From assembly GCA_964439475.1 (NCBI GenBank), contig CAYTOT010000006.1, positions 18,104-82,103 on the forward strand: a stretch of DNA of 64,000 bases, given 5' to 3'. The DNA comes from an uncultured Alcaligenaceae bacterium (GTDB lineage Bacteria > Pseudomonadota > Gammaproteobacteria > Burkholderiales > Casimicrobiaceae). The translations under genes were made by a program, and so were the position numbers. This document shows positions 12,649 to 56,772 of this stretch, one piece after another (position 1 is the stretch's first letter; the number at the start of each line of letters is the position of its first letter). The notes under the pieces were generated by a model. It was not told the DNA's origin, made no database searches, and saw only the letters and a list, made by a program, of their open reading frames with translations.

Positions 12649-12650
12649 CC

Positions 12651-13424
12651 ATGGCGACGCGCATCCCCTCGGTCGTGATGCTGCACGCGAGTGCGAGCTC
12701 GGCGCGCCAGTGGCAACCGCTCGCCGCGGCGCTGGCGCCGGAATGTCGCGTGCACGCGATCGACCTGCATGGCCACGGCGAGCGATCGCCGTGGCGGGAC
12801 GCACGTCCCCTCTCGCTTGCGGACGAGGTGGCCCTCGTGGTGCCGCTTCTCGCCCGAGAGGGAGACGTGCACCTGGTCGGCCACTCCTACGGCGGCGCGG
12901 TCGCGCTCAAGGTCGCCGCGATGTATCCCCGGCAGGTGCGCAGCCTGACGGTGTACGAGCCGGTGATGTTCCGCTGGCTCGTCGCCGCGCGGGCGGCGGA
13001 AGTCGCCGACGTGATCGGTGTGGCCGACGCCATTCGCCGTCACCTGGCGCTCGGGGCCGCCGCCGATGCCGCGCAGGTGTTCATCGACTTCTGGTCGGGG
13101 CAAGGCGCGTGGCAGTCGATGGCTGCGCCGCGCCGTGAGTCGATCGTCGCCCGCATGGAATCGGTGGCGGCACACTTCGCGGCCCTGCTGGCCGAGCCGC
13201 TCGCGGTGAGCGACATCGCACGCCTCGGCATCCCCACGATGGTGCTCACCGGCGCCCGCACCGTGCCCGTGATGCATCGGATGGCGACGATGCTGCGAGG
13301 TGCGCTGCATGCGCGCCATCGCGAAGTGGCAGGGGCCGGTCACATGGGCCCGATGACTCACGCGGATCTCGTGAATCGGGAGATACTCGGCTTCCTCGAA
13401 GCGGACGCGCGTCTCGCGGCATGA
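12651..13424 (+). CDS. Alpha/beta hydrolase
   Basis: MLHASASS oxyanion region, nucleophile motif GHSYGG, C-terminal GHMGP. Starts 3 nt after the ferritin-like gene. Confidence 0.88.
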   Translation: MATRIPSVVMLHASASSARQWQPLAAALAPECRVHAIDLHGHGERSPWRDARPLSLADEVALVVPLLAREGDVHLVGHSYGGAVALKVAAMYPRQVRSLTVYEPVMFRWLVAARAAEVADVIGVADAIRRHLALGAAADAAQVFIDFWSGQGAWQSMAAPRRESIVARMESVAAHFAALLAEPLAVSDIARLGIPTMVLTGARTVPVMHRMATMLRGALHARHREVAGAGHMGPMTHADLVNREILGFLEADARLAA

Positions 13425-13460
13425 CGGTGCGGTGGAACGGGGCGGTCCGGATACCGTCGG

Positions 13461-14633: not shown

Positions 14634-14909
14634 GACGGGGACGTCGAGGCTGGTCGCGGCCGATGCCGCGCGAGCGCGAATCCTAGCAGCGAGCCGTCCG
14701 ACGATGCATCCGGCCTGCCATGCCCCGCTTGCTAGAATCCGGCCTCGACGGCCGGAAGCGGCCATGAGCCCCAGGACAGGATTTGCGAGCAGATGCAGCG
14801 TCATCACGACGGCGGGCCCGCCGGCAGTTGCGGCAGGACCTGCCTTGCGGGCGGCCTTCGGCCGCCGCTTCACCCCGCCGGGCCTGACCGACGTCCCGGG
14901 ACGTCCCTC

Positions 14910-20356: not shown

Positions 20357-21592
20357 TCATCGCGATGACTTCGTCATGGCCAAGACCTGCGCGCCGTCGC
20401 GCGCGGCGATCAGCTGGATTTCGTACCACCGCATGAGCTCGCGCCGCATCTCGACTCGTTGCGCGCGGTCATAGGCGGCAGTGACCTTATTCCCGATCAC
20501 ATGATCTAGTTGCGCCTCGACGGCCAGCATGTCCTTGCCGGCGTCGCCCGCCCACGAATTCAGCACGGAACGCCACGAGTGCGGCGAGTGCTTCCCGCCG
20601 AGGTCGAGCGCGCGACGGTAGAACTTCTCGACGGCCTCGCGTGTGATATGCCCCTCGCCTCGCGGTGCCGGACATACGTGCAGCGCCTCGTCGCCATCCG
20701 CGCGGCGCCACTCCCGCATCTGTCCGAGTAGCACCGGCGGTATCGGCACGACGTGCGGCCCGCGCTTCTCGTCCTTGCGTTTCATGCGCTCACGAGGGAT
20801 CGCCCAGGTACCGGCCTTCAAATCCACTTCCGCCCACGTCGCCGGGACAATCTCGCCGATGCGCTGCGCGGTGAACGCGGCCAGTAGGTGCGCCCGCCGC
20901 ACTCCGCGCGCCACGTCGGCCTTGTCGGCAGCGCGGAGGATGGTGCCGACGCCTGCATGGTCCAGCACGGCAGGGTAATGCTCGCGCTCGGTCCTCCGTC
21001 GGCGGCCCATCGTTATGGGGTTGCCTGCGATCAGACCTTCCTCCACCGCGCGATTCAGGATCGCCCAAAGCCGCTGGCGGACCTTGCGCGCCATGTCGGG
21101 CGCCCTCCGGTCAACACGGCGCAGCACAGGGGCAGCGATTGCAGCGGTGAGTGCCGAGATGGGTAGCCCGTCAAGGTCGCGCAGATGGTTGCGCAGGCTC
21201 GATTCCACTTCGCGTTGATAGCCCGCCGTCCATTTCGCCTCGCGCGCCTCGGAGCGCATCCAGTCGGCGGCCACCTTGGCGAAAGTATCCTCGGTCGCGG
21301 CCGCTCGGGTGGCGACGGTGATGCGCTTCTCGGCGGCGACGTTGCGCCCCGCCTCCACCAGACTCCGCGCTTCGTCGGCCCGGGCCCGGGCCCAGGCGAG
21401 CCCTTGAACGTCGCTCGCGCGTCCGAGGGTGGCGATAGTCTCCCGGCCGTTGTGCCGGTAGCGCAGTTGCCACGTCCGCACGCCCGAGGGGGGCACGAAC
21501 AGGTAGCGCCCGTCGCCGTCGCGCAGGCGGTAAACCTTCTCGGCGGGCTTCGCGGCCCGGACCTTCACGTCTGTGAGCAGATAGCGCGCCAT
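20357..21592 (-). CDS. P4/IntA-like tyrosine integrase
   Basis: Arm-binding N-domain (LTDVKVRAAKPAEKVYRLRDGDG); catalytic R (AQRIGE), HSWR, LDH and AAYDR. Confidence 0.95.
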   Translation of the reverse strand: MARYLLTDVKVRAAKPAEKVYRLRDGDGRYLFVPPSGVRTWQLRYRHNGRETIATLGRASDVQGLAWARARADEARSLVEAGRNVAAEKRITVATRAAATEDTFAKVAADWMRSEAREAKWTAGYQREVESSLRNHLRDLDGLPISALTAAIAAPVLRRVDRRAPDMARKVRQRLWAILNRAVEEGLIAGNPITMGRRRRTEREHYPAVLDHAGVGTILRAADKADVARGVRRAHLLAAFTAQRIGEIVPATWAEVDLKAGTWAIPRERMKRKDEKRGPHVVPIPPVLLGQMREWRRADGDEALHVCPAPRGEGHITREAVEKFYRRALDLGGKHSPHSWRSVLNSWAGDAGKDMLAVEAQLDHVIGNKVTAAYDRAQRVEMRRELMRWYEIQLIAARDGAQVLAMTKSSR

Positions 21593-21617
21593 GGGTAATC
21601 CTCAAAGGGGGAATCCG

Positions 21618-21769: not shown

Positions 21770-22147
21770 TGGTGGAGGTGGCGAGAATCGAACTCGCGTC
21801 CGAAGACGTTCCACAGTCAGGACTACATGCTTAGTCTCGTCATTGTGCTCTCGTCACCCAACCGTTGACGGACAGACGGCGGAGCAACCAGTCACCTTGT
21901 TTTGACGTCTCACCCAAGTGACCCGGGCGGACGCGATCGCTCGAAATGTCCCTGCCGCAGCTACGGTGTCGCCACCTTCGCTACCCGGGCTGAGCGCCGC
22001 CCGGTGCAGGGTCCGGCGGGATTAAGCCGCCAGAGCGTAGTTTTCGTCGTTCGCAGTTAAGTTTGCGAGTGTCAGGGTTTTACGAGGACTAACACCTCGG
22101 CATGCCCCAAGCTGCTTCACAGCCCCCGTCGAGACCAGTTCACCCCC
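21770..22147 (-). ncRNA. ssrA: tmRNA
   Basis: 5' GGGGGUG pairs with 3' CACCUCC-ACCA; T-arm GAGUUCGAUUCUC; tag ORF at 22022-22054 encodes ANDENYALAA*. Confidence 0.98.
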
Positions 22148-27576: not shown

Positions 27577-28380
27577 CTAGGCCTCTCCCTTCCCCCAATC
27601 CGCCTCGTAGGCGCGCTCTCGCGTATCGACGACGCTGTGCCGGATCTCGACCGGCGTGTCGTGGTAGGTATAGGCGATGCGGTCGATCACCAGCACCGGC
27701 ATGCCGACGGCGATACCGAGCGCACGCGCCGACGTCCGGTCCGCCTCGCGCGCCGCGAGTCGCTCGTGCGTGCGCACGACGTTGACCCCGTAGCTCGTCT
27801 GGTAGAGGCTGTAGATCGTGCTGTCGCGCTGGCCGAAGCGCGCCGCGGTGAGGCCGGGAAAACGCGCCGCCTCGATGACGATGGTGTCGAGCACGGTGCG
27901 TTGCCCTGCGAGGCTCAGGAGATTGGTGATGCGCAGCACCTTCGCCCCCGGCGCGATGGCGAGAGCGCCGGCTTCGGCGGCAGTGGCGGTTCCGCGCACG
28001 AACGCGAGCAGGCGCGGCGCGGGCAACTCGCGCGAGCCATCGCGCTCGACGATGTGGAAGAAATGATAGCGGTTGCGCGCCGGCCCGTGCAGCGCGACGA
28101 AGGTGCCGAGGCCCTGGCGGCGCACCAGGATCCGCTCGGCGACCAGTTCGTCGGTGGCCTTGCGCAGCGTGCCGATGCTGACCCCGAAGCGGCTCGCGAG
28201 CCGCGCCTGGTCGGGCAGCGCGCTTCCTGGTGTCCATTCGCCTGCGATGAGCGCCGCCGTGATCGCCGCCTTCACCGCCTTGTAGCGCGGCAGTTCCCGC
28301 ACGCCGGCCCGCGCGGCGAGCGCTTCCGGACTGCCGCGGGCGCGGCCACGAGGACGATCGGGTCCACGCAACATATGCAT
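27577..28380 (-). CDS. GntR (HutC/UTRA) transcriptional regulator; start uncertain
   Basis: YKAVKAAI...GEWTPGSALPDQARLASRFGVSIGTLRKA...RRQGLGTFV, followed by a UTRA domain. Confidence 0.92.
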   Translation of the reverse strand: MHMLRGPDRPRGRARGSPEALAARAGVRELPRYKAVKAAITAALIAGEWTPGSALPDQARLASRFGVSIGTLRKATDELVAERILVRRQGLGTFVALHGPARNRYHFFHIVERDGSRELPAPRLLAFVRGTATAAEAGALAIAPGAKVLRITNLLSLAGQRTVLDTIVIEAARFPGLTAARFGQRDSTIYSLYQTSYGVNVVRTHERLAAREADRTSARALGIAVGMPVLVIDRIAYTYHDTPVEIRHSVVDTRERAYEADWGKGEA

Positions 28381-28381
28381 A

Positions 28382-28428
28382 TCATCTAGATGACCTGGTT
28401 GACATGCTAGCACGGCGCGGCGCACAAT
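28382..28428 (+). promoter_or_regulatory. GntR operator palindrome and divergent sigma70 promoter for the suy operon
   Basis: Perfect palindrome TCATCTAGATGA (28382-28393), then TTGACA (28399-28404) and CACAAT (28423-28428). Confidence 0.6.
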
Positions 28429-28511
28429 CCACCCCATCCCGTGCCCGGCAGCCTCGCATCCAGCGGATCGCTGCGCCGCCACGGGCATCCATTCCACCAG
28501 AGGAGTTGAGC

Positions 28512-28793
28512 GTGATCGATTTCGTGGTGCACGACGAGGGTGATTCCGCCGGCGTCGTCGTCGTCGAGGGAGTCAAGGCCGGTGCCAAGCTCCAGGGCTG
28601 GATCATGGACCAGGACAAGGACCTGAACGTGACCGCGCTTTCGGACATCCCCATCGGGCACAAGCTCGCGATCAAGCCGCTCGCGGCCGACGCCACCGTG
28701 ATCAAGTACGGCGTCGACATCGGGCGCACCGTCGCGCCGATCAAGGTGGGCGAGCACCTGCACGTCCACAACGTCAAGACCAAGCGCTGGTAG
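28512..28793 (+). CDS. suyA: SAF-domain small subunit, (R)-sulfolactate sulfo-lyase alpha-like
   Basis: [13 protein letters not shown]...VIKYGVDIG...[26 protein letters not shown] before the GTG. Confidence 0.8.
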
Positions 28794-28801
28794 GAGGCGC
28801 C

Positions 28802-29971
28802 ATGAACCTCGCGAATGCGACATTCCGCGGCTACCTCCGCGACAACGGGCGCGTCGGCGTCCGCAACCACGTGATCGTGCTGCCGGTCGACGACATCTCC
28901 AACGCCGCCGCAGAGGCGGTGGCGCGCAACATCATGGGTACGATGGCGCTGCCGCACCCATACGGCCGCCTGCAGTTCGGCGCGGATCTGGAGCTCCACT
29001 TCCGGACGCTCATCGGAACCGGGGCGAACCCCAACGTCGCCGCGGTCATCGTCATCGGCATCGAGCCGGGCTGGACGAAGCGCGTGGTCGACGGCATCGC
29101 CCGGACCGGGAAGCCCGTGGAGGGTTTCTGGATCGAGCAGAACGGCGACATCGCGACCATCGCCAAGGCCTCGCGCAAGGCCAAGGAGTTCGTGCACTAC
29201 GCGACCGCCCTCGACCGCGTCGAGCGGCCGCTCTCCGACCTGTGGGTGTCGACCAAGTGCGGCGAGTCCGACACCACCTCCGGCTGCGGCTCCAATCCGA
29301 CAGTCGGCAACGCCTTCGACAAGATGTACCCGCACAAGGTGACCCTCTGCTTCGGCGAGACGACGGAGATCACCGGAGGCGAACACATCGTCGCGGCGCG
29401 CTGCGCGACGCCCAAGGTCCGCGACGAGTTCATGGCGATGTTCAACCGCTACCAGGAAGTCATCGATCGCTTCAAGACCAGCGACCTCTCCGAGTCGCAG
29501 CCGACCAAGGGTAACATCGAGGGGGGGCTGACAACGATCGAGGAGAAGGCACTCGGCAACATCCAGAAGATCGGGCGCGTCTGCAAGGTCGATGGCGTGC
29601 TCGACAAGGCCGAGACGCCGACCCATCCGGGCCTGTGGTTCATGGACTCGTCGTCGGCCGCGGCCGAGATGGTCACGCTGTGCGCCGCATCGGGCTACGT
29701 CGTCCACTTCTTCCCCACTGGGCAGGGCAACGTGATCGGCAACCCCATCCTGCCGGTGATCAAGCTGTGCGCCAACCCGCGGACCGTGCGCACCATGAGC
29801 GAGCACATCGACGTCGACGTCTCGGCACTGCTGCGCCGCGAGATGTCGCCCGACCAGGCGGGCGACGCCCTGCTCGCCAGCATGTTCGCCACGGCCAACG
29901 GACGCCATACGGCGGCCGAGGTGCTCGGTCACCGCGAGTTCGTGCTCACCCGGCTGTACGAAAGCGCATAG
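28802..29971 (+). CDS. suyB: UxaA-family (R)-sulfolactate sulfo-lyase beta subunit-like
   Basis: [50 protein letters not shown] and FPTGQGN. Split SAF + UxaA layout. Confidence 0.82.
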
Positions 29972-30052
29972 CGAGTCCGCGCTGCAACGGTTCCGCGCGG
30001 CCGGCGGCGTTGCCGGCCGCGACGAGGTGTCTTGTCATCCAAGGAGGGCATC

Positions 30053-31063
30053 ATGCGCTACCGAAATCTCATTGCAGCGGCGCTGTCGGCCGGACTCATC
30101 GCGGGGGTTGCCGCGCCCGCAGCCGCGGAGATGCAGGAGATCCACGCTGCCAAGCAGTACGGGATCAGCTATCTCGGCTTGATGGTGATGGAGAACCACA
30201 AGCTCTTCGAGAAGCATGCCAAGGCGGCGGGCCTGGGCGACGCCAAGGTCGTCTGGAGCACCTTCTCCAGCGGCAGCGTGATGAACGACGCCCTGCTGTC
30301 CGGCAACCTGCAGTTCGCCGCCGAGGGGGTGGGACCGTTCGTCACGTTGTGGGCGAAGACCAACGGCAACATCGGCGTCAAAGGCGTGAGCGCGATGAAC
30401 TCCATGCCGCTCTACCTCAACACGCGCAATCCCAACGTGAAGACCATCAAGGACTTCACCGACAAGGACAAGATCGCGCTGCCGGCGGTGAAGGTGTCGA
30501 TCCAGGCGGTCACGCTGCAGATGGCGGCCGCCCAGGCCTTCGGCCAGGAGAACGCGAACAGGCTGGATTCGCTGACGGTGTCGATGTCGCATCCGCAGGG
30601 CATGATCGCGCTCCTCTCCGGAAAGGGCGAGATCACCGCGCACCTCACGTCACCGCCCTACCAGTACCAGGAGCTGAAGGACAAGAGCATCCATCGCGTG
30701 TTCAGCTCGTACGACGTCCTCGGCGGGCCAGCCACGTTCAACGTGATCGCCACGACCTCCAAGTTCCGCAACGAGAACCCCAAGACCTACAAGGCGTTCT
30801 TCGATGCCTTCAAGGAGGCGACCGACTGGATCAATGCGAACAGGAAGGACGCCGCCGAGCTCTACCTGACCATGTCGAAGGACAAGTCCAGCGTGGGCGA
30901 CATCATGGAGATCCTCAACGATCCCGACATCAAGTACACGCTCACGCCGAACAACATCATGAAGTACGTCGAGTTCATGCACAAGATCGGCTCGATCAAG
31001 GTGACACCCGCGTCGTGGAAGGACATGTTCTTCGACAGCGCGCATGACCTGAAGGGCAGCTAG
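30053..31063 (+). CDS. NitT/TauT-family ABC substrate-binding protein
   Basis: Signal peptide; QYGISYLGL, MNDALLSG, SHPQGMIALLSG and HLTSPPY. Confidence 0.88.
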   Translation: MRYRNLIAAALSAGLIAGVAAPAAAEMQEIHAAKQYGISYLGLMVMENHKLFEKHAKAAGLGDAKVVWSTFSSGSVMNDALLSGNLQFAAEGVGPFVTLWAKTNGNIGVKGVSAMNSMPLYLNTRNPNVKTIKDFTDKDKIALPAVKVSIQAVTLQMAAAQAFGQENANRLDSLTVSMSHPQGMIALLSGKGEITAHLTSPPYQYQELKDKSIHRVFSSYDVLGGPATFNVIATTSKFRNENPKTYKAFFDAFKEATDWINANRKDAAELYLTMSKDKSSVGDIMEILNDPDIKYTLTPNNIMKYVEFMHKIGSIKVTPASWKDMFFDSAHDLKGS

Positions 31064-31141
31064 TGCAGGCGTCGGCGCGGGCGCGGCCCTGCCGTCGCGG
31101 CAGCGGGGGGATCGTCGTGGGCGGCGCGGAGGCTCGCTGAC

Positions 31142-31933
31142 ATGCCCGCGCCGCCCACACCCGTGCCGCTTCTGGACGTGCGCGGCGTCACGCTGCAGTA
31201 CAAGACCAAGGAGCACCTGGTGACGGCCACCTATCGGGTCGACTTCCAGGTGTACCGGTCGGATCGTTTCGTGATGCTCGGGCCGTCGGGCTGCGGCAAG
31301 TCGACGCTGCTGAAGGCGGTGGGCGGCTACATGACGCCGACCGAAGGCGAGATGCGCCTCAACGGCGAGGTGATCCGCAAGCCCGGCGCCGACCGCATGA
31401 TGGTGTTCCAGGAGTTCGACCAGCTCCTGCCGTGGAAGACCGTCAAGGAGAACGTGATGTTCGCGCTGACGGCGAGCGGGAAGCTGAAGGGCAGGCAGGC
31501 CGAGGACAAGGCCATGCAGTACATCGAGAAGGTGAACCTCACCAAGTTCGCCGACAGCTTCCCGCACACGCTTTCCGGTGGAATGAAGCAGCGGGTGGCG
31601 ATTGCCCGCGGCATGGCGATGGAACCCGAGATCCTGCTGATGGACGAGCCGTTCGCGGCGCTGGACGCGCTTACCCGGCGCAAGATGCAGGAGGAGCTGC
31701 TGCAGCTCTGGGACGACACGCACTTCACCGTGCTCTTCGTCACGCACTCGATCCCGGAGGCGGTCCTGCTCGGCAACCGCATCCTGCTGCTTTCGCCGCA
31801 TCCCGGCCAGGTCAAGGCGGAGTTGAACAGCGACGGGCACGACCGCACGTCCAGCGACGGCAAGACGCTATCGGACCGCATCCAGGACATGCTCTTCGCC
31901 GACGCGATCGAAGAGGAGGCCACGCATGCCTGA
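31142..31933 (+). CDS. NitT/TauT ABC ATP-binding protein
   Basis: GPSGCGKST, LSGGMKQR and LLMDEPFAALD. Confidence 0.95.
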   Translation: MPAPPTPVPLLDVRGVTLQYKTKEHLVTATYRVDFQVYRSDRFVMLGPSGCGKSTLLKAVGGYMTPTEGEMRLNGEVIRKPGADRMMVFQEFDQLLPWKTVKENVMFALTASGKLKGRQAEDKAMQYIEKVNLTKFADSFPHTLSGGMKQRVAIARGMAMEPEILLMDEPFAALDALTRRKMQEELLQLWDDTHFTVLFVTHSIPEAVLLGNRILLLSPHPGQVKAELNSDGHDRTSSDGKTLSDRIQDMLFADAIEEEATHA

Positions 31934-32801
31934 AGCCGGAGCGACGATGATCGAGCGTCCGGAGTTCGTACGCACGGTCGAGACCGAGGCCTACGGGGTC
32001 GTGCAGAAGCCGCTCACGACGTGGGAGAAGATCTACGACAACGGCGCGGCGCGCAAGACCTTCCTGCTGCTGGTGATGGTGGTGGCATGGGAAGCCTACG
32101 CGCGATGGCTCAACAGCCCGCTGCTGTTCCCGACGTTCGGAGCGACCGTAAGGGCGTTCTACGACGCGATTGCGAGCGGGGTGCTGCCGCACCGCACGTG
32201 GTTCTCGATCAAGGTGCTGCTGCAGGGCTATGCCATCGGACTGGTGCTGGCCGCGCTGCTCACCGCCTTCGCGACCGCCACCCGGATCGGCACCGATCTC
32301 CTCGAAACCCTGACCTCGATGTTCAATCCGCTGCCGTCGATAGCGCTGCTGCCGCTCGCGCTCATCTGGTTCGGGCTGGGCAACGGCAGCCTCATCTTCG
32401 TGCTGATCCACTCGGTGCTGTGGTCGGTCGCGCTCAACACGCATACGGGCTTCAAGGCGGTCAGCCAGACACTGCGCATGGTGGGACGCAACTACGGACT
32501 CACGGGGCCGCGCTACATCATGAAGATCCTGATACCGGCCGCGTTTCCGAGCATCCTCACCGGACTCAAGATCGGCTGGGCATTCGCCTGGCGCACGTTG
32601 ATCGCGGCGGAGCTGGTCTTCGGCGTTTCGTCGGGCTCGGGCGGGCTTGGGTGGTACATCTACGAGAACAAGAACCAGCTCGAGATTCCGGCCGTGTTCG
32701 CGGGGCTGTTCACGGTGATCATCATCGGGCTCGTGGTGGAGAACCTGATCTTCCACCGCATCGAGGCGAGCACCATACGGAAGTGGGGCATGCAGACCTG
32801 A
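31926..32801 (+). CDS. NitT/TauT ABC permease
   Basis: PLPSIALLPL, EAA-like MVGRNYGL and WAFAWRTLIAAELV. Confidence 0.93.
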   Translation: MPEAGATMIERPEFVRTVETEAYGVVQKPLTTWEKIYDNGAARKTFLLLVMVVAWEAYARWLNSPLLFPTFGATVRAFYDAIASGVLPHRTWFSIKVLLQGYAIGLVLAALLTAFATATRIGTDLLETLTSMFNPLPSIALLPLALIWFGLGNGSLIFVLIHSVLWSVALNTHTGFKAVSQTLRMVGRNYGLTGPRYIMKILIPAAFPSILTGLKIGWAFAWRTLIAAELVFGVSSGSGGLGWYIYENKNQLEIPAVFAGLFTVIIIGLVVENLIFHRIEASTIRKWGMQT

Positions 32802-32805
32802 CGCC

Positions 32806-33741
32806 ATGGCGCATATCGTCATCACCGAGTTCATGGATGTCCCTGCCGTCGAGGCGCTGCAGCAGCGCCATGACGTCGTGTACCGGCCTTCGCTCGTCGA
32901 CGAGCCGCAGACACTGCGCCAGGCGGTGGCAGGCGCCGATGCGCTGATCGTGCGCAATCGCACGCGGGTCGACACCGCGCTGCTGGATGCCGCACCCCAC
33001 CTGCGCGTCGTCGGGCGCCTGGGTGTGGGGCTCGACAACATCGACGTTGCCGCCTGCGGGTTGCGCGGCATCGAGGTGATCCCCGCGACGGGCGCGAACG
33101 CACTGGCGGTAGCGGAGTACGTGATCGGCACGGCCATGCTGCTGCTCCGGGGCGCGTATCGCTCCACGGACGACGTCGCCGCGGGACGCTGGCCGCGCGC
33201 GGCGCTTTCCGAGGGCCGGGAGATCCACGGCAAGACGCTCGGGCTCGTGGGATTCGGCGCCATCGGTCGCCTGACCGCCGAACTGGCGCGCGCGCTCGGC
33301 ATGCGGATCGTCGCCCACGACCCCGCGATCGATCGCGGCGCGCCGGCCTGGCGCGAGCACGGCGCCGAGCCGCTCGCGCTCGACGACGTGTTCGCCGGTG
33401 CCGACGCGGTCAGCCTGCACGTTCCGCTCATGGACTCGACGCGCAACCTCGTCGATGCGCGCCGGCTCGCACTGATGAAGTCCGGCGCGGTGCTGATCAA
33501 TACGGCGCGCGGCGGCATCGTCGACGAGACGGCACTCGCCGCAGCGCTTCGCGCCGACGCGCTCGGCGGCGCTGCGCTGGACGTCTTCGCCGGCGAGCCG
33601 CTCGCGGCGGGCTCGCCCCTCGCCGGTGCCCCGAACCTCGTCCTCACGCCGCACATCGCAGGCGTCACCGCGGAGTCGAACGAGCGCGTGAGCCGGATGA
33701 TCGCCGAGCGCGTCGCCGCCGCGCTCGCCGCCGCGCGATAG
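32806..33741 (+). CDS. slcC: D-2-hydroxyacid dehydrogenase, (S)-sulfolactate dehydrogenase SlcC-like
   Basis: N-terminus MAHIVITEFMD recalled from SlcC; GRLGVGLDNID, GFGAIG, INTARG, LDVF..EP and TPHIAG; sulfonate gene context. Confidence 0.72.
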   Translation: MAHIVITEFMDVPAVEALQQRHDVVYRPSLVDEPQTLRQAVAGADALIVRNRTRVDTALLDAAPHLRVVGRLGVGLDNIDVAACGLRGIEVIPATGANALAVAEYVIGTAMLLLRGAYRSTDDVAAGRWPRAALSEGREIHGKTLGLVGFGAIGRLTAELARALGMRIVAHDPAIDRGAPAWREHGAEPLALDDVFAGADAVSLHVPLMDSTRNLVDARRLALMKSGAVLINTARGGIVDETALAAALRADALGGAALDVFAGEPLAAGSPLAGAPNLVLTPHIAGVTAESNERVSRMIAERVAAALAAAR

Positions 33742-33844
33742 CGGGCCGCGCGGCACCCGTGGCGCCCGCTGCGCCCTCCCCTCCCGGGGCTCCTGCCGCG
33801 CGCACTCCCGCGGCACCGCTCGACAAGCATCTGCGCGGCTGACG

Positions 33845-34603
33845 TTGCCGGCATGGTCACTGCCGTTCGACCCGGCAGCCATTGCGGCGGCCGGTGCGAT
33901 CGTCCTCGTCGCCTATGTCGTGTTCGGGATGACGGGCTTCGGCTCGTCGATCGCCGCCGCGCCCTTCCTGGTCCTCCTGTTTCCGCTCACGTTCGCAGTG
34001 CCCATGATGGTGATCCTCGACCTGTGCTGCGGATCGCTGCTGGCACTGCGCACGCGGCGCGAAGCAGCGTGGCGCGAGCTCGCGAGGCTTGCACCATGGA
34101 TCGCGCTGGGCATGCTCTTGGGGGTCACGCTGCTGGTCAACGCACCCGAGCGCGTGCTGCTCACCCTGCTCGCGCTGTTCGTGCTGGGCTACCTCGCGCG
34201 CAGCCACCTCGCCGCCCCCACCCGCACCCCGCTCTCCACGCGCTGGGCGAGCACGTTCGGCATGTTCGGCGGCGTGTTCACGGCCCTCTACGGAACCGGC
34301 GGCCCGATCCTGCTCGTCTACCTTGCGCGACGCCTCGCCGATGCGCGCGCGCTGCGCGCGACGATGGGCATGCTGATCCTGCTGACCGCCGTGGCCCGCG
34401 TCCCGCTGTTTGCCGGCGCAGACCTGTTCGCACAACCCGGCCTCGTCGCCCTGTGCGCCGCGCTGATCCCCGTTGGGCTCCTGGGGCTCTGGATCGGCAG
34501 CCGCCTCCACCATAGATTGCCGCCGCGACAGGTGATGCTGACCATGCACGCCGTCCTGCTGGCCGGCGCGATCAATCTCCTCTACAGGGTGCTGGTCGCC
34601 TGA
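33845..34603 (+). CDS. TauE/SafE sulfite exporter
   Basis: GMTGFGSSIAAAP and GVFTALYGTGGP motifs, about 8 TM segments. Confidence 0.88.
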   Translation: MPAWSLPFDPAAIAAAGAIVLVAYVVFGMTGFGSSIAAAPFLVLLFPLTFAVPMMVILDLCCGSLLALRTRREAAWRELARLAPWIALGMLLGVTLLVNAPERVLLTLLALFVLGYLARSHLAAPTRTPLSTRWASTFGMFGGVFTALYGTGGPILLVYLARRLADARALRATMGMLILLTAVARVPLFAGADLFAQPGLVALCAALIPVGLLGLWIGSRLHHRLPPRQVMLTMHAVLLAGAINLLYRVLVA

Positions 34604-36348
34604 ACGAGCGTATGGCCGGGCTGCACACGGGAAAAACGCACCGGTTCGAAGCCGATCTCGAACTCGCCGCCTTCGCGGCGCACGACGGTGAACGTCGAGG
34701 CCGCAAGATCGCCCGCCTGCGGGAAGTCGGTACGAAAGTGCGCCCCGCGCGAGTCCTCGCGCGCCAGCGCTGCGGTGGCGATGGCCTTGCTCACGTCGAT
34801 CAGGCTCGCGAGGTTGAGCCAGTCGTGCCAGGTGGGATTGAAGCCCCTGTCGCCATCGGCCACGCCGATGCGCGCGAGCTCGCCTTCCAGGATGCCCAGC
34901 GTCGACAGCGCACGCCGCAGTCCCGCAGCATCACGCACGATGCCGACGTCGTCCCACATGCACGCATAGAGCGCCCCGCGCACCGGTTCGAGCGACCCCG
35001 GCGCGGAGGCGAACGGCGCCTCGTGCCGCGCGACGCTCGCCGCGATCGCCGCGTCGTCGGGCTCGTGCAGGCGTCCGTGCTCCCGCACCCATGCCGCCAT
35101 GCTGTCGCCGGCGATCCCGCCGAAGACCGTGGAGTTCGCCACCCCGTTGCCGCCGAGACGGTTGGCGCCGTGCACGCCGCCGGTGTCCTCGCCGGCGGCG
35201 AAGAGCCCCGCGAGCGCCGTCGTGCAGTCGGGCGCGAAGCGCACGCCGCCCATCATGTAGTGCGCCGTGGGAACGACCTCGACCCGCCCGCCGGCGAGAT
35301 CGAAGCCGCAGTCCGCGCAGCGCTCGACCATGCCCTTGAACTGGCGGCGCACGTTGTTCGCGCCCAGGTGCCGCATGTCGATCCATACGCCGCCATGCGG
35401 GGTCACGCGCCCTGCGCGCATCTCGGCGTCGATGGCGCGCGACACCACGTCGCGCGTGGCGCGCTCGCCGTTCGGATCGTGGTGATGCATGAAGCGCTCG
35501 CCGAGCCCGTTGACGAGGTGGCCGCCCGCGCCGCGCAGTCCTTCCTCGAGCACGGTGCCGGTCATGCGGGTGTGCGTGCCGGCGAGCAGCCCCGTGGGGT
35601 GGAACTGCACCATCTCCATGTCGCGCAGCGAGAGTCCCGCGCGCAGCGCCATGGCGAGCCCGTCGCAGCTCTTGTCGCCCGACGGGGTGTGATAGCGGTA
35701 CATGGTAGGGCCGCCGCCGGTGGCGAGCAGGACCGCCTTCGCCTGCACGAAGACGAAGTCGCCGCGCGGCATGTCGATCATCAGCACGCCGGCCAGCGCG
35801 TCGCCCCCGGGCGTCTTCACGAGCTCGATTGCACGGTGGTCCTCGAGGCGCGCGATGTCGCGCGCCCACACCTGTTCGGCGAGGCGATTGATGATCTCGA
35901 TGCCGGTCAGGTCCCCCTTGTGCACGGTGCGATCGAAGGTCTGGCCCGCGAATGCCTTCTGATGCACGCTGCCGTCGGGATTGCGGTCGAAGAAGCAGCC
36001 GAGCTCGTTCTCCAGCTCGCGGATGCGCACCACTGCGCCGTTCACCAGCGTCCACGCGAGGTCCTGGTCGGCGAGCCACTTGGAGCCCTCGATCGTGTCC
36101 ATGAAGTGGCGCTCGATCGAGTCGCCGGGGGCGAGCGCCACGTTGTAGCCGCCCTGGACCATGCGCGTGCAGCCGCACTTGCCGAGCAGCCCCTTCACCG
36201 CCACGGTGATCGCGAGCTCGGGCGCCGCGGCGTGCGCGTGCAGCGCGGCGAAGAGCCCCGCGCCCCCCGAGCCCAGGATCAGGATGTCGGTGGACAGGCG
36301 ACGGACCGGCGTGGCTCCTTCGCCCGCGGGGACGCCCTGCGGCCTCAC
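34582..36348 (-). CDS. Succinate dehydrogenase / fumarate reductase-like flavoprotein (paralog)
   Basis: GSGGAG, CTRMVQGG, QFHPTG, RDVVSR, PTAHYMMGG and HGANRLGGN. GTG overlaps the upstream stop; 3' end overlaps tauE convergently. Confidence 0.9.
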   Translation of the reverse strand: MRPQGVPAGEGATPVRRLSTDILILGSGGAGLFAALHAHAAAPELAITVAVKGLLGKCGCTRMVQGGYNVALAPGDSIERHFMDTIEGSKWLADQDLAWTLVNGAVVRIRELENELGCFFDRNPDGSVHQKAFAGQTFDRTVHKGDLTGIEIINRLAEQVWARDIARLEDHRAIELVKTPGGDALAGVLMIDMPRGDFVFVQAKAVLLATGGGPTMYRYHTPSGDKSCDGLAMALRAGLSLRDMEMVQFHPTGLLAGTHTRMTGTVLEEGLRGAGGHLVNGLGERFMHHHDPNGERATRDVVSRAIDAEMRAGRVTPHGGVWIDMRHLGANNVRRQFKGMVERCADCGFDLAGGRVEVVPTAHYMMGGVRFAPDCTTALAGLFAAGEDTGGVHGANRLGGNGVANSTVFGGIAGDSMAAWVREHGRLHEPDDAAIAASVARHEAPFASAPGSLEPVRGALYACMWDDVGIVRDAAGLRRALSTLGILEGELARIGVADGDRGFNPTWHDWLNLASLIDVSKAIATAALAREDSRGAHFRTDFPQAGDLAASTFTVVRREGGEFEIGFEPVRFSRVQPGHTLVQATSTL

Positions 36349-36959
36349 GGCGCCTTCACGCCGAGCGCCGCGAGCACGCTGGCGCGCTTCGCCGCGGCGG
36401 CGTCGCGCACCGCCTCGTAGAGACTGCCGCCGACGCTGTCCATGCCGACGAGCAGCGGTCCGAAGTCGCGGATGCGAAACTTCCACAGCGACTCGGGATT
36501 CAGGTCGTCGAGGTCGACGTCCTCGATGGCCTCGATCCACGTCGTTTCGAGCGCCGCGGTGCCGCCGACGATCGCGAGGTAGACGCCACCGAGATCGCGG
36601 AACGCCGCAGCGGAGGCCTCGCGCAAGCCCCCCTTGCCGACGATCGCCCGCACCCCGTAACGCTCGAGCAGCGGGCGGGTGAAGCGCTCCATGCGGTCCG
36701 ACGTGGTGGTGCCGATGCACACCGGCGCGTATCCCGCCGGATTGGCCGCGTCGGGTGTGACCTTGCGCACGTTCGGCGCGGTGTGAATCACCGCGTGACC
36801 GGCGAGGTCGAAGCGCGTCGTGCGTCCGCGGTCGAACATGTGGATCTGCGTGGCGTCGCGGATGCCGTACAGGGTGTTCTGCAGCGTGACGGTATCGCCG
36901 ACGCGAAGGCTGCGCGCCGTCGCCTCGTCGATCGGCATGCGAAGGTCATGGTGAGCCAT
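36345..36959 (-). CDS. Class I fumarate hydratase / tartrate dehydratase beta-like subunit
   Basis: LRVGDTVTL...IRDATQ...GTTTSDRM...IVGKGG...GPLLVGMDSVGGSLY. Confidence 0.9.
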   Translation of the reverse strand: MAHHDLRMPIDEATARSLRVGDTVTLQNTLYGIRDATQIHMFDRGRTTRFDLAGHAVIHTAPNVRKVTPDAANPAGYAPVCIGTTTSDRMERFTRPLLERYGVRAIVGKGGLREASAAAFRDLGGVYLAIVGGTAALETTWIEAIEDVDLDDLNPESLWKFRIRDFGPLLVGMDSVGGSLYEAVRDAAAAKRASVLAALGVKAP

Positions 36960-36978
36960 CGTCGGTGTTCTCCGCGGA

Positions 36979-37857
36979 TCAGTAGCCGAAGGTCACGCCC
37001 GCTGGCGTGAACGTCGCCGAGGCGCGCCGCGCCGAGTGGCATTGCATGTTGACCGCCACGGGGTTCATCGTGATGTGCGTCGCCGCGAGTTCGACGTGCA
37101 CCGCGAAGGCAGTGGCATCTCCGCCCAGGCCCTGCGGGCCGACACCCAGCGCATTCACCGCCGCGCTGAGCGCAGTCTCGAGCGGGGCGCCCTCGGGATC
37201 GGCGCAGCGCGTTCCCAGCGCCCGCGTCGCCGCCCGCTTGGCGAGCGCGACGCACAGGTCGGAGGTGCCGCCGATGCCCACGCCGACGATGGTGGGTGGA
37301 CAGGTCTTGCCGCCCGCTGCGAGCACGCAGTCGACCACGAAGGTCTTGACCGCATCGACACCCTCGGCAGGAATCGCCATGCGCAGGAACGAGTTGTTCT
37401 CCGAGCCGCTCCCCTTGGGGATCATGAGGAGGCGCAACGTCTCCTCCTCGTCGACGAAATCGACGTGGATCACGGGAACCTCGGTGCCGCAGGACGTCTG
37501 CTCGTTGCGCCGCGTCAGCGGATGCACGACCGACGAGCGCAGCGGGTGCTCGCGGGTGGCGCGCGCGCATCCTTCGCGGATCGCTGCCTTGAGCGCGACA
37601 CCGTCGACCTCGACGTGGCGGCCGATCTCGACGTTGTAGATGGGGATTCCGGTGTCCTGGCACAGGAGGTTGTTGCGCGCCTCCGCGACCGCGATGTTGG
37701 TGACCATCGTGCCGAGGACCCGCTGCGCCGTGGCGTCAGTCTCCCGCGCCGTGAGTGTGGTGAAGCCTTCCTTGATGTCGGGAGGCAGCATCTTGAGCGC
37801 CCGGATGTAGAGCTCACGGCTCGCATCCTCGACGGCGGCAGGGTCGATCTTCATCAT
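36979..37857 (-). CDS. Class I fumarate hydratase / tartrate dehydratase alpha-like subunit (Fe-S)
   Basis: Three cluster Cys motifs (LLCQDTG, GGKTCPP, VNMQCHS) plus PKGSGSEN. Confidence 0.9.
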   Translation of the reverse strand: MMKIDPAAVEDASRELYIRALKMLPPDIKEGFTTLTARETDATAQRVLGTMVTNIAVAEARNNLLCQDTGIPIYNVEIGRHVEVDGVALKAAIREGCARATREHPLRSSVVHPLTRRNEQTSCGTEVPVIHVDFVDEEETLRLLMIPKGSGSENNSFLRMAIPAEGVDAVKTFVVDCVLAAGGKTCPPTIVGVGIGGTSDLCVALAKRAATRALGTRCADPEGAPLETALSAAVNALGVGPQGLGGDATAFAVHVELAATHITMNPVAVNMQCHSARRASATFTPAGVTFGY

Positions 37858-37894
37858 CGTCCTCTCGCAAGGGATCGCGCCGGCCGTGAACGCG

Positions 37895-38266
37895 TCATCG
37901 CCACAGGGCCAGCGCGAAGACGAGTCCGGCGGCCAGCCCGGCGGCGCAAGCACCGGCGATCCAGTCCTTGCGCAGGCCCGACCACGGCCGGAACTCGATG
38001 AGGAGCAGGCGTAGCCCGCCCGCCATGTGCAGCGTCAGGAGCACCACGAGCCCCCATTCCGCGATCTTGAAGAGCGGCCGGTCGGCAAAGCGCAGGAAGC
38101 CGTCGAGGGCCGCATCGCCGCGCAGTGCCGTCGACAGCGCCAGGAAGTGCAGCGGCAGGAACACCGCGAGCGCGATGCCCGAGAGCCGGTGCACGAGATA
38201 CGCCCACCACGCCGGATGCGCGTGCGCGCGCGCATCGCTGCGCCGCATCGGCCTGCCGGCGCTCAT
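37895..38266 (-). CDS. SdhC-like membrane anchor (cytochrome b)
   Basis: LVHRLSGIAL...LHF...LHMAGGLRLLL, three TM segments. Confidence 0.85.
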   Translation of the reverse strand: MSAGRPMRRSDARAHAHPAWWAYLVHRLSGIALAVFLPLHFLALSTALRGDAALDGFLRFADRPLFKIAEWGLVVLLTLHMAGGLRLLLIEFRPWSGLRKDWIAGACAAGLAAGLVFALALWR

Positions 38267-38658
38267 CCGATCACCATCGCGTAGACCGCGGTCATGCCGA
38301 GTGCGGCGAGGATCCAGGCCAGCGCTCCGGCACAGGCATTGGCGACGCGGCTCGACAGGCCGACCCACTCCTCGCCGATGCGGGCGAGCCCGATGGGCGC
38401 GTGCACGGCGGCAGCAACGACGAACACGGCATAGAACGCGCCGAAGGCGACGCTGCCGCGGGTCCGTGCGAGCAGTGACTCGGCGGAAAGTCCCGAGCGC
38501 ACCGCGTACACGATGGTGACCAGGTGCACGAGCACGCACACCGCCAGCACCATCGCCGAGATGCGCTGCCAGTACCAGCGGCGCGCCTCGCGAACCGGGT
38601 CGTGCGGGGCCGGGTGATACGCCCGGACAGGGCCGGCGGGGCTGCCTTGCGCGCTCAC
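38263..38658 (-). CDS. SdhD-like membrane anchor
   Basis: WYWQRISAMVL...VHL...VHAPIGL, three TM segments. 3' part of the 447-aa track ORF. Confidence 0.82.
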   Translation of the reverse strand: MSAQGSPAGPVRAYHPAPHDPVREARRWYWQRISAMVLAVCVLVHLVTIVYAVRSGLSAESLLARTRGSVAFGAFYAVFVVAAAVHAPIGLARIGEEWVGLSSRVANACAGALAWILAALGMTAVYAMVIG

Positions 38659-39395
38659 GGCTCGAGTTCCCCGCGCAGCGCGGCGCGCGCCGTGACGCGC
38701 TTCAGGCCGGCGATCGCGGCGGTGGGCGAGATGTGCTTCGGGCAGCGTTCGGTGCAGGAACCCTGCGTGTGGCAGACGTGGCAGCCCGCGTCGCCCGCGA
38801 CCGCGCGCAGCCTCTCCTTGCCCGCGACGTCGCGCTCGTCGTTGACGAGCGTCCACGCGCGGTTGAGCGCCGCCGGGCCGAGGTAGTCGGGACGCCACGC
38901 GACGACGTCGCAGGATGCGTAGCAGGCGCCGCAGCCGATGCACTCGATGCCCGCGTCGACCGCCTTGCGCGCCACCGAATCCGGCGTGACCCGGGCAAAC
39001 TCGTCCACCCGCGTGCGCGTGCCGCTGAAGCGCCCGCGCGCCGCCGCCCACTTGTCGAAGAACACGCGCATGTCCGTCACGAGGTCCTTGACGAGGGGCA
39101 GGTTGGCGAGCGGCGCGAGTTCGAGGCGCCCATCGGCAGCGACCTCCGCGACGTGGGTGCGGCAGGTCCAGCGGGCGCGTCCGTTGACCGTCATCGCGCA
39201 GGAGCCGCACATGCCGACCCGGCAGGCGAAGCGGTACGCGAGCGACGGCTCCAGATTGCGCTGGACATAGGTGACGACGTCGAGCACCGTCTGGCTCGCA
39301 CGCCGCGGCACGTCGTAGGCGGCGAATGCGCCATCGCGGCGCCCGCGCCAGATCGACACGCGCAACGTGGCACCCTGTCCATCCTCCTCGCTCAT
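38655..39395 (-). CDS. SdhB/FrdB-like iron-sulfur subunit
   Basis: CRVGMCGSC...C, CIGCGACYASC and CHTQGSCTERCP. Confidence 0.93.
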   Translation of the reverse strand: MSEEDGQGATLRVSIWRGRRDGAFAAYDVPRRASQTVLDVVTYVQRNLEPSLAYRFACRVGMCGSCAMTVNGRARWTCRTHVAEVAADGRLELAPLANLPLVKDLVTDMRVFFDKWAAARGRFSGTRTRVDEFARVTPDSVARKAVDAGIECIGCGACYASCDVVAWRPDYLGPAALNRAWTLVNDERDVAGKERLRAVAGDAGCHVCHTQGSCTERCPKHISPTAAIAGLKRVTARAALRGELEP

Positions 39396-39466
39396 GTTGC
39401 CATTGTCCGCCTCCCCAACACTCAAGGAAAGCGAAATCTTCCGTACGTGAGATAAAGTATCGCTTT

Positions 39467-40351
39467 ATGTCATCGATCCGCAGCCTGCGCCTCTTCGTTG
39501 CCGCCGCTCGCGGCGGGAGCTTTGCTGCTGCCGGCAAGGCGATGGGCCTCACCGCCGCCGCGGTCGGCCTGCAGATGAAGGCGCTCGAGACCGACCTCGG
39601 TGTCACGTTGTTCGATCGCGGTCCGCGCAGCGTCGTGCTGAACAGCGCCGGCCGCAGGGCGCTTGCCGGCGTCGAGGACCTGATCGCGCGCTACGAAGCT
39701 CTGGCGGCGGGCGCCGATGGCGCACTGTCCGGTACGCTGGTGATGGGCGCGCTCGTCTCGGCGCTGATGGGCGCGTTCGCCGACGCGCTGTGGACGGTGC
39801 GCCACGCGCATCCGCGCCTCGACGTGCGCCTCTTCGCCGGCAAGTCGCGCGATTTCGCCGCGCGGGTGGCCGACGGCGAGCTCGACGCCGCGATCGTCGT
39901 GCGCGCCCCCTACCGGCTCCCCGCGAGTCTCGCGTGGACACCGTTGTACGCGGAGCCGATGGTGCTCATCGTGCCGCGCCGGCCACACTTCGTCCTGCCT
40001 CGCGGCGCGACGCGCATCCTCGCCGAGGCGCCGTTCATCCGCTTCGACCGCAACGCGTGGACCGGGTACCTCGTGCGTCGGGTGCTGCGCCAGGCGGGCG
40101 CCCGCGTCCGCGACGACATGGAACTCGACTCGGTCGAGGCGATCGTCGAGCTGGTGCGCGGCGGCTTCGGGGTGTCGATCGTGCCGCAGCTCGCCAACGT
40201 CGACTGGAGCGCCGATCGCGCGCTGCGCATCGTGCCGGTGCCCGGCGTCGATGTCGCCCGCGAGGTGGGCCTGCTCGAACGCACGCGCCACCCCCGCATG
40301 CAGGCGACCGCTGCGATCAAGGATTGCTTCGTGACGCGGGCAATCGGCTAA
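39467..40351 (+). CDS. LysR-family regulator, divergent from the sdh/fum-like operon
   Basis: LRLFVAAARGGSFAAAG...AVGLQMKALETDLGVTLFDR. AT-rich AAAG-N5-CTTT type repeats upstream. Confidence 0.93.
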   Translation: MSSIRSLRLFVAAARGGSFAAAGKAMGLTAAAVGLQMKALETDLGVTLFDRGPRSVVLNSAGRRALAGVEDLIARYEALAAGADGALSGTLVMGALVSALMGAFADALWTVRHAHPRLDVRLFAGKSRDFAARVADGELDAAIVVRAPYRLPASLAWTPLYAEPMVLIVPRRPHFVLPRGATRILAEAPFIRFDRNAWTGYLVRRVLRQAGARVRDDMELDSVEAIVELVRGGFGVSIVPQLANVDWSADRALRIVPVPGVDVAREVGLLERTRHPRMQATAAIKDCFVTRAIG

Positions 40352-55228: not shown

Positions 55229-55348
55229 TTCAAGTTCCTGTCGTTGATGGTCATTCCTCCAGTGTATCGATTGCCTTCCATGATCCGCCCAGATATTCGC
55301 CGCCCGAGCCGCAAACGCGGCATGCGCACTCCACGATCAGCATGTTCA

Positions 55349-56731: not shown

Positions 56732-56772
56732 CGATTCGAGGCCTCTTTCGCGAGATTCCCTGCCTCGGCTCG

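Follow-up and report, generated by a model that had tools for sequence, protein, structure and literature searches.

Complex II-like and fumarase-like paralogs linked to sulfolactate sulfo-lyase genes: a candidate pathway for 3-sulfopropionate degradation

Why would genes resembling those of succinate dehydrogenase (SDH) and fumarase stand beside genes for the desulfonation of sulfolactate? The question is raised by positions 27577-40351 of a 64,000-nucleotide stretch of contig CAYTOT010000006.1 (assembly GCA_964439475.1, an uncultured bacterium of the Casimicrobiaceae), the whole of which is called the window here. In this region, genes for a four-subunit complex II-like enzyme and a two-subunit class I (Fe-S) fumarase-like hydratase adjoin suyA, suyB and tauE. 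The best reading of the cluster, which we hold to be somewhat better than evenly probable, is a route from 3-sulfopropionate through sulfoacrylate and (R)-sulfolactate to pyruvate and sulfite. An earlier note on this DNA, made from its letters alone, had read the SDH-like and fumarase-like genes as paralogs that work with SuyAB and TauE instead of as housekeeping enzymes, and this view is strongly supported by co-conservation across about 80 species and by active-site changes specific to the paralogs. The kinds of enzyme (complex II, class I fumarase, the SuyAB pathway) are known; what appears to be new is their probable combination for a C3 sulfonate.

Gene content and proposed route

3-Sulfopropionate is succinate with a sulfonate in place of one carboxylate, and by analogy no other C3 sulfonate would be turned into sulfolactate by an SdhA-type dehydrogenase followed by a fumarase-type hydratase. 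From the gene set we infer the substrate, the direction, regiochemistry and stereochemistry of the reactions, and the ligands of the regulators. The ATP-binding cassette (ABC) system would import a sulfonate-carboxylate, most likely 3-sulfopropionate. The complex II paralog, in which an SdhA-like flavoprotein is joined by an SdhB-like subunit bearing three Fe-S clusters and by heme b-binding SdhC/D-like anchors, would oxidise it at C2-C3 to (E)-3-sulfoacrylate and pass the electrons to quinone. The two-subunit [4Fe-4S] fumarase-like hydratase would add water to sulfoacrylate and yield 3-sulfolactate, in the (2R) form if fumarase stereochemistry is kept. SuyAB would then eliminate sulfite from sulfolactate, leaving pyruvate, and TauE would export the sulfite. 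The SlcC-like dehydrogenase may connect (S)-sulfolactate with sulfopyruvate. The GntR regulator would control the lyase/transport operon and the LysR regulator the dehydrogenase/hydratase operon.

By the Cahn-Ingold-Prelog rules, the geometric counterpart of L-(S)-malate is the (2R) isomer of sulfolactate, which is the substrate of SuyAB. A hydratase with fumarase stereochemistry would therefore give (2R)-sulfolactate and no racemase would be needed, which fits the absence of ComC from the window. No coenzyme A (CoA) ligase or transferase genes were found in the cluster by Pfam scan. That the complex II paralog feeds quinone from 3-sulfopropionate, with its flavin adenine dinucleotide (FAD) either S-cysteinyl or non-covalent, and forms with the hydratase a CoA-independent mineralisation route, the first to be assigned enzymatically, is a proposal to which we give even chances.

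The region contains 15 genes, all present and intact according to Pfam and NCBIfam scans and inspection of start codons; none of the 15 reading frames is interrupted or unusual in length. The genes are as follows.

27577 to ~28380, minus strand: GntR/UTRA regulator (SuyR-like), divergent from suyA (PF00392+PF07702; start placed at ATG 28380)
28512-28793, plus strand: SuyA, sulfolactate sulfo-lyase small subunit (93 amino acids; GTG start 28512)
28802-29971, plus strand: SuyB, (2R)-sulfolactate sulfo-lyase large subunit by prediction (PF04295+PF20629; 389 amino acids)
~30053-31063, plus strand: periplasmic binding protein of a NitT/TauT-type ABC importer (PF13379, NMT1_2; TIGR01728 SsuA below cutoff)
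31142-31933, plus strand: ABC transporter ATPase (PF00005)
31926-32801, plus strand: ABC transporter permease (PF00528)
32806-33741, plus strand: D-isomer-specific 2-hydroxyacid dehydrogenase, SlcC-like, candidate (S)-sulfolactate dehydrogenase (PF00389+PF02826)
33845-34603, plus strand: TauE/SafE-family anion permease, candidate sulfite exporter (PF01925)
34582-36348, minus strand: SdhA-like flavoprotein, candidate 3-sulfopropionate dehydrogenase catalytic subunit (PF00890+PF02910)
36345-36959, minus strand: class I (Fe-S) fumarase-like beta subunit, candidate sulfoacrylate hydratase (PF05683)
36979-37857, minus strand: class I fumarase-like hydratase alpha subunit (PF05681)
37895-38266, minus strand: SdhC-like membrane anchor, cytochrome b556 type (PF01127; TIGR02970)
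38263-38658, minus strand: SdhD-like membrane anchor (PF01127 match in frame)
38655-39395, minus strand: SdhB-like iron-sulfur subunit (PF13085, 4Fe-4S dicluster families; TIGR00384)
39467-40351, plus strand: LysR regulator, divergent from the sdhB-like gene (PF00126+PF03466; start placed at ATG 39467)

Two convergent operons are formed, each with a divergent regulator (GntR and LysR), in agreement with the gene set and layout of the earlier note. On the plus strand, suyA and suyB are followed by the genes for the binding protein, the ABC ATPase, the permease, the D-2-hydroxyacid dehydrogenase and TauE; on the minus strand the order is sdhB-, sdhD- and sdhC-like, fumarase alpha, fumarase beta and sdhA-like. 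The G+C content of the window is ~70%, and raw lists of open reading frames (ORFs) are therefore noisy; frames were picked by third-position GC (GC3) and then checked with Pfam and NCBIfam. The genes named in the earlier note were borne out, but the apparent overlap of its sdhB-like and lysR frames was a product of over-long ORFs, and the gap is ~71 bp once the real starts are used. Start and stop codons do overlap between several neighbouring genes (e.g., the fumarase beta stop with the GTG start of the sdhA-like gene).

At their 3' ends, tauE and the neighbouring sdhA-like gene share 22 bp (34582-34603), an overlap that had also been described before. It leaves no terminator space between the two operons, and transcription of each may read into the other.

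The sulfolactate module and its partners across species

The identity of the desulfonating enzyme was investigated through its subunits and its closest relatives. SuyA and SuyB divide a UxaA/GarD fold between two adjacent genes, and SuyAB is the sole heteromeric member of its superfamily (PMC6336799). The two Pfam families of SuyB, and the lack of a confident Pfam match for SuyA, are as in Table S2 of PMC12421959. The profile matches of SuyA are weak (SAF domain, galactarate dehydratase N-terminus); it aligns over its full length with the SuyA of Cupriavidus pinatubonensis, and its GTG start is preceded by a GAGGAG Shine-Dalgarno sequence. The sole PDB relative of SuyB is a galactarate dehydratase, 6U7L. 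The window SuyB is 79.5% identical to the plasmid-encoded SuyB of the C. pinatubonensis hpsRNOUP-suyAB cluster, in which suyB comes directly after hpsN-hpsO-MFS-hpsP-suyA (MFS, major facilitator superfamily) and (R)-sulfolactate is made by HpsN and cleaved by SuyAB (PMC11382572). Given how close these two SuyBs are, sulfolactate would be the node that the pathways share. The C. pinatubonensis protein also nests among the SDH-linked SuyBs of the related loci described below, with 74-95% identity to them, while they share 70-100% mutually; the SDH-linked lyases thus show no sign of functional divergence. We predict that the window SuyAB is an Fe2+-dependent lyase that cleaves (R)-sulfolactate to pyruvate and sulfite. 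The SDH/fumarase pair takes the place that HpsNOP has for 2,3-dihydroxypropane-1-sulfonate (DHPS).

The SlcC-like protein has the same family pair (PF00389+PF02826) as the validated SlcC of Chromohalobacter salexigens, and its best NCBIfam match, PGDH, is below cutoff; the earlier label 'slcC-like' holds at the level of the family but not beyond it. The validated SlcC, ComC and SuyB of C. salexigens fall in Pfam families seen here and in related loci (PMC12421959, Table S2). The regulator pair PF00392+PF07702 is also found next to suyA in P. wurundjeri, and a PF01925 membrane protein is encoded alongside the desulfonation genes. In the literature, SlcC/ComC-SuyAB-TauE is treated as a module onto which varied upstream pathways plug. 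The window has the split SuyA/SuyB, the GntR/UTRA regulator by suyA, the SlcC-family dehydrogenase and the TauE of the SuyAB modules of C. salexigens, Paracoccus spp. and C. pinatubonensis, but its feeder consists of complex II and class I fumarase paralogs instead of HpsNOP or a sulfosugar pathway. It also differs from the C. salexigens-type sulfolactate module with its SlcC/ComC racemase pair: the SlcC-family gene is present, and the 64-kb window has no Ldh_2 (ComC) homolog. In the closest relative among the loci compared, a Casimicrobiaceae metagenome-assembled genome (MAG; locus L001), a ComC-like Ldh_2 gene lies at ~12500-13600 between tauE and the SlcC-like gene. The same spot of the window (33741-33845) has only ~100 bp and no Ldh_2.

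The association of the SDH-like genes with this module was then assessed in other genomes. Close homologs of the flavoprotein number in the thousands (~75-90% identical, mostly in Burkholderiales) and carry the database names 'FAD-binding protein', 'fumarate reductase flavoprotein subunit' and 'L-aspartate oxidase'. A scan with family-specific peptide patterns, using one genome per species, gave matches in at least ~600 species genomes. The best 80 of these at least 600 stretches were analysed with flanks of up to 10 kb, which were full in 39 of them. Gene calls in the related loci were crude (ORF length and GC3), and hence the co-occurrence counts rest on tblastn searches in which the window proteins were the queries; ORFs from the loci were also clustered. 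The hosts of the 80 loci were mainly Burkholderiales, and the closest loci among the matches listed were Casimicrobiaceae MAGs. Cultured carriers in the scan include Bordetella petrii, Bordetella sputigena, Curvibacter delicatus NBRC 14919, Massilia niastensis DSM 21313, Paraburkholderia diazotrophica, Paraburkholderia domus, Parapusillimonas granuli LMG 24012, Imbroritus primus LMG 32992 and Polynucleobacter campilacus, and Cupriavidus basilensis was among the sources of flavoprotein homologs.

FumA-FumB-SdhA were contiguous in almost all 80 loci, with SdhB-D-C before them. Among the 39 full-flank loci, homologs of SuyB were found in 26, of SuyA in 27, of ComC-like Ldh_2 in 31 (L001 among them), of TauE in 14 and of the SlcC-like protein in 14, and 36 of the 39 held at least one of SuyB, ComC-like, SlcC-like and TauE. 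The best NCBIfam match of the ComC-like protein is L-sulfolactate dehydrogenase. Across all 80 loci, a GntR homolog was present in 27, a TauE homolog in 24, and a LysR in the same divergent position in 21. The placement of SuyB varied, with the gene upstream on the same strand in 21 loci, on the opposite strand and convergent as in the window in six, and downstream in eight. In many species the genes form a single operon, GntR | SuyA-SuyB-(TPP enzyme)-SdhB-D-C-(sulfatase)-TctC-FumA-FumB-SdhA-(TctC)-ComC-like (TPP, thiamine pyrophosphate). The transporter type swaps freely among ABC, TctC and TAXI-TRAP systems, and a few loci have ComA (phosphosulfolactate synthase family) and a second TauE within the operon. 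Because the same gene set surrounds the SdhA-like gene in dozens of species, the cluster is not due to chance, and a partnership that outlasts such wide rearrangement is a classic signature of one pathway. The earlier note had asked whether the two operons are conserved together; they are, with sulfolactate-module genes beside the FumA-FumB-SdhA core in the 36 full loci counted above. The comparison of these loci makes a functional link between the SDH/fumarase paralogs and the sulfolactate genes well supported.

Variant loci and additional genes were also observed. Four alphaproteobacterial loci (L054, L071, L077, L080) have SdhB-D-C-SdhA followed by a fumarase only ~33% identical to that of the window; their neighbours include nitroreductase-like, aconitase-X-like and EamA genes and one for a large protein without an assigned function, and the reachable flanks contain no sulfonate genes. 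Their flavoprotein is ~71% identical to that of the window, yet its substrate may be different, and substrates may therefore vary within the family. A TPP enzyme of 550 amino acids is encoded in 26 of the 80 loci (e.g., L073:2711-4363, L010, L004, L046, L036), often between suyB and the sdhB-like gene, and some loci have the order SdhA-like-TctC-TPP-TauE with no SuyAB in reach. Its identification as sulfoacetaldehyde acetyltransferase (Xsc) was rejected on scores of 156-173 bits with the Xsc models, whose cutoffs are 620-676. The best matches were acetolactate synthase, 2-hydroxyacyl-CoA lyase and oxalyl-CoA decarboxylase types, all below cutoff. The enzyme may desulfonate sulfopyruvate, apparently replacing SuyAB in some relatives. 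A gene of the Cys-type cytoplasmic sulfatase family lies between the sdhC-like gene and tctC in eight loci (L023, L048, L056, L057, L060, L064, L073, L079; e.g., L064:5842-7251 and L056:3180-4776), a few of which also have ComA and the second TauE. Homologs of a second SdhA, ComC (Ldh_2), TctC, the TPP enzyme, the sulfatase and TRAP transporters were searched for in the 64-kb window, and none were found.

Predicted active sites of the dehydrogenase and hydratase

The SdhA-like flavoprotein was aligned, as a family of 53 members, with SdhA, FrdA and NadB of Escherichia coli, to each of which it is 34-35% identical. It scored below all NCBIfam equivalog cutoffs, with TfrA as the best match (491.6 bits vs. 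a cutoff of 718); the scores for nadB and sdhA_forward were 340 (vs. 453) and 325 (vs. 727). The FAD_binding_2 and Succ_DH_flav_C domains are both present, and the catalytic residues H242, R286, H354 and R399 are found in 53 of 53 members. The Q50 position is likewise Gln throughout the family, as in SdhA, whereas FrdA has Glu (E49). The flavoprotein can thus be described, on these residues, as a catalytically complete but divergent enzyme of the SdhA/FrdA type. It would not belong with L-aspartate oxidase, judging by its nadB score, its SdhB/C/D-like partners and the Phe that all 53 members have at the F119 position, where NadB has its amino-group-binding Glu. A NadB-type cysteate oxidase was considered and rejected for the same Phe, for the encoded Fe-S and anchor partners, and for the fumarase-like genes, which it would leave without a role.

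Three features set the family apart. The histidine that binds FAD covalently (E. coli SdhA H45, FrdA H44) is an invariant Cys in the motif GK[CS]GCTRMVQGG; the closest solved structure, mycobacterial Sdh1 SdhA, retains the histidine. T254 (FrdA Thr244) of the dicarboxylate-binding hinge loop is Glu in 53 of 53 members. The same loop (HPTG...EG) carries an invariant six-residue insertion with a fixed Thr-Arg. Together, the change of T254 to Glu and the inserted Thr-Arg loop indicate that one carboxylate-binding site is remodelled. A remodelled half of the pocket would be expected if one carboxylate site now held a sulfonate.

The partner subunits retain their cofactor ligands. All 10 cluster cysteines are invariant in the SdhB-like protein (TIGR00384, 188 bits). 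The SdhC-like protein scores 57.2 bits with TIGR02970, above the cutoff of 52.3, and conserves Arg31 together with its heme-binding His84; in the SdhD-like protein, the heme is bound by His71, which does not vary. With both the Fe-S ligands and the two heme b histidines intact, the complex looks competent for electron transfer to quinone. Compared with E. coli SdhCDAB, the four subunits, the catalytic His/Arg set, the Fe-S cysteines, both heme histidines and Gln50 are the same. It differs in the Cys at the FAD histidine, the Glu at T254, the six-residue loop insertion and an identity of about 35%, as well as in the gene order B-D-C-(fumarase alpha, beta)-A, the linkage to sulfonate genes and the lack of tricarboxylic acid (TCA) cycle neighbours. 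No TCA gene was found among the nearest flanking neighbours of the cluster, as the earlier note had remarked. Judged by sequence and setting, the SDH-like and fumarase-like genes are paralogs and not housekeeping TCA genes.

The closest solved structure to the hydratase is the two-subunit fumarase of Methanocaldococcus jannaschii, 7XKY (alpha, 7XKY_A; beta, 7XKY_B). The Fumerase and Fumerase_C families of a two-subunit class I fumarase are both represented. The alpha subunit keeps the three cluster cysteines (CQD, CPP, QCH), including the QD motif, and passes NF004885 with 299.5 bits vs. a cutoff of 276; the beta subunit keeps the RD, TTSxR and GKGG motifs, has a six-residue insertion and remains below NCBIfam cutoffs. 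The alpha and beta families, the three cysteines and the catalytic motifs are thus as in M. jannaschii fumarase and TtdAB. The hydratase is set apart from these enzymes by genes that are always embedded among sdh-like genes, by its below-cutoff beta subunit with the insertion, and by a presumed substrate with a sulfonate for one carboxylate. Since every known ligand and catalytic motif is conserved, specificity is not readable from the sequence. The context, in which the genes always lie inside the sdh-like/sulfolactate cluster, would argue against fumarate or L-malate as the substrate.

Alternative readings, precedent and surroundings

Several observations weigh against the proposed route. 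The main caveat concerns the direction of oxidation, as an invariant Cys replaces the 8-alpha-FAD histidine. In complex II, the covalent-FAD histidine is needed for succinate oxidation, and His44 variants of E. coli FrdA reportedly lose the covalent link and succinate oxidation with it, while fumarate reduction is kept. By this precedent, the enzyme with its invariant Cys may favour reduction. As an exception, the Cys could form an S-cysteinyl flavin, or the sulfonate couple could have a lower potential. Second, 13 of the 39 full-flank loci have no SuyB within 10 kb, and in a few alphaproteobacterial loci the reachable sequence contains no sulfonate genes. Third, comparison with solved fumarases revealed no obvious substrate-site change in the hydratase. 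Finally, ComC was not found in the 64-kb window, and the same enzyme families would make the chemistry of another sulfonated acid feasible.

The flavin site bears most directly on a reversed direction, in which sulfolactate would be dehydrated to sulfoacrylate and a quinol:sulfoacrylate reductase would make 3-sulfopropionate as an electron sink, in the manner of fumarate respiration. The covalent-FAD histidine is absent from all 53 family members, and non-covalent flavoenzymes of the SdhA/FrdA family are typically reductases. TauE might then export 3-sulfopropionate, and a TauE has been proposed as the 3-sulfopropionate exporter of E. gilvus (PMC11489063). Against reversal stand the Gln, not Glu, at the SdhA-Q50/FrdA-E49 position in every member, the SdhCD-type heme b anchors with both His ligands, and the coupling of the module to uptake systems and to SuyAB, which is already a sulfolactate consumer. 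The hosts are also mostly aerobic Burkholderiales, and the invariant Cys could itself carry the flavin. We therefore regard reversal as unlikely.

The proposed oxidation could also act on another sulfonated acid, for example from sulfosuccinate to sulfofumarate and hydroxysulfosuccinate, which would be desulfonated either directly or once it had been oxidised and decarboxylated to sulfopyruvate and sulfolactate. TctC-type (tricarboxylate-family) binding proteins occur in many loci, and the extra invariant Arg-containing loop of the flavoprotein could bind a third anionic group. The change of T254 to Glu, however, takes away a carboxylate-binding residue rather than keeping both sites. SuyB cannot be told apart from the DHPS-cluster sulfolactate lyase, the conserved ComC-like, SlcC-like and ComA-like partners are all C3 sulfolactate/sulfopyruvate enzymes, and extra steps would be needed. 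A substrate of this kind is, in our estimate, as unlikely as reversal.

Alternatively, the genes might encode ordinary dicarboxylate enzymes (a second SDH/fumarase, L-tartrate dehydratase, or enzymes of methylsuccinate/mesaconate) or an aspartate/cysteate-oxidase-like flavoprotein that are merely adjacent to the sulfolactate genes. The database names of the homologs ('fumarate reductase flavoprotein subunit', 'L-aspartate oxidase', 'FAD-binding protein'), the alpha subunit that passes the NCBIfam fumarate hydratase cutoff, and the few alphaproteobacterial loci without sulfonate neighbours would agree with this. Nevertheless, in 36 of 39 full loci sulfolactate genes have stayed with the cluster although the gene order was extensively reshuffled, the flavoprotein falls below all SdhA, FrdA and NadB equivalog cutoffs and has Phe in place of the amino-group-binding Glu, the Fe-S and anchor subunits, which NadB does not have, are present, and TCA neighbours are lacking. 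Such enzymes are quite improbable here, and a purely coincidental neighbourhood appears very unlikely.

The least probable of the four alternatives is the opposite regiochemistry, in which water added at C3 of sulfoacrylate would give 3-hydroxy-3-sulfopropionate and then, spontaneously, sulfite and malonate semialdehyde, leaving SuyAB to serve imported sulfolactate only. As bisulfite adducts of aldehydes, alpha-hydroxysulfonates fall apart spontaneously, and in a third of the full loci SuyB is missing while TauE and/or the TPP enzyme is present. The alternative might apply to loci without SuyAB. Against it, the cluster iron of class I fumarase coordinates the carboxylate at C1 and the hydroxyl at C2, with residues that are conserved here, SuyAB shares the operon in many species, and no recurrent malonate-semialdehyde dehydrogenase was found in the loci.

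For the preferred route from 3-sulfopropionate to pyruvate and sulfite, precedent exists for the intermediates. A thesis by J. Mayer described the conversion of homotaurine to 3-sulfopropionate, sulfoacrylate and sulfolactate in the aerobic Roseovarius nubinhibens ISM (as cited in PMC11489063). The intermediates are the same as those proposed here, and the citing text names no enzymes or genes. XcbC and XcbD, of the aspartase/fumarase superfamily, act on sulfoacrylate in bacterial coenzyme M biosynthesis (PMC9457059). Sulfoacrylate is in that case also a biological fumarate analogue handled by fumarate-type enzymes, but these proteins, with their class II fold, are unrelated to the families seen here and serve a biosynthetic rather than a catabolic pathway. 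Apart from the thesis, degradation of 3-sulfopropionate was described as unreported in 2024 (PMC11489063), and a 2026 review calls its mechanism in Bilophila unclear. The guess of the earlier note that similar chemistry had already been reported in sulfonate-respiring anaerobes was thus not borne out by the searched literature. No enzymes assigned to 3-sulfopropionate or sulfoacrylate catabolism were found in that literature, outside of which lay most subscription journals and the Konstanz thesis.

Several sources of the substrate can be named. 3-Sulfopropionate is excreted by bacteria that have stripped homotaurine of its nitrogen, it is formed from sulfoquinovose and DHPS by anaerobes of the gut and elsewhere, and the 3-sulfopropyl carbon skeleton is also part of common synthetic buffers and sulfobetaine detergents. 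If the route is correct, it would close a gap in the organosulfur cycle and provide a marker gene set for metagenomes, and complex II and an Fe-S fumarase would have been recruited whole for a sulfonate analogue of succinate. The family would also show, as a natural experiment, what the covalent flavin link contributes in enzymes of the complex II type, and widespread misannotation as 'L-aspartate oxidase' or 'fumarate reductase flavoprotein' could be corrected. For 3-sulfopropionate, whose degradation has been an explicitly open question, there is thereby a gene set that can be tested, and many cultured strains carry it.

The cluster is flanked upstream by genes for an AI-2E transporter, ManC and an OmpA-like protein, and downstream by genes for Mfd and a metallo-beta-lactamase-fold protein. 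Elsewhere in the window, 11409-14736 (~3.3 kb) contains no ORF passing the GC3 filter and no match to an Rfam family. At positions 54000-60000, G+C drops to 0.60-0.65 vs. ~0.70 elsewhere, with strongly negative GC skew, and this segment may be foreign DNA. A transfer-messenger RNA (tmRNA) gene (21770-22147, minus strand; tag ANDENYALAA) adjoins a tyrosine integrase gene (20357-21601, minus strand) where G+C is down to 0.64, and this stretch looks like a genomic island or prophage remnant inserted at ssrA.

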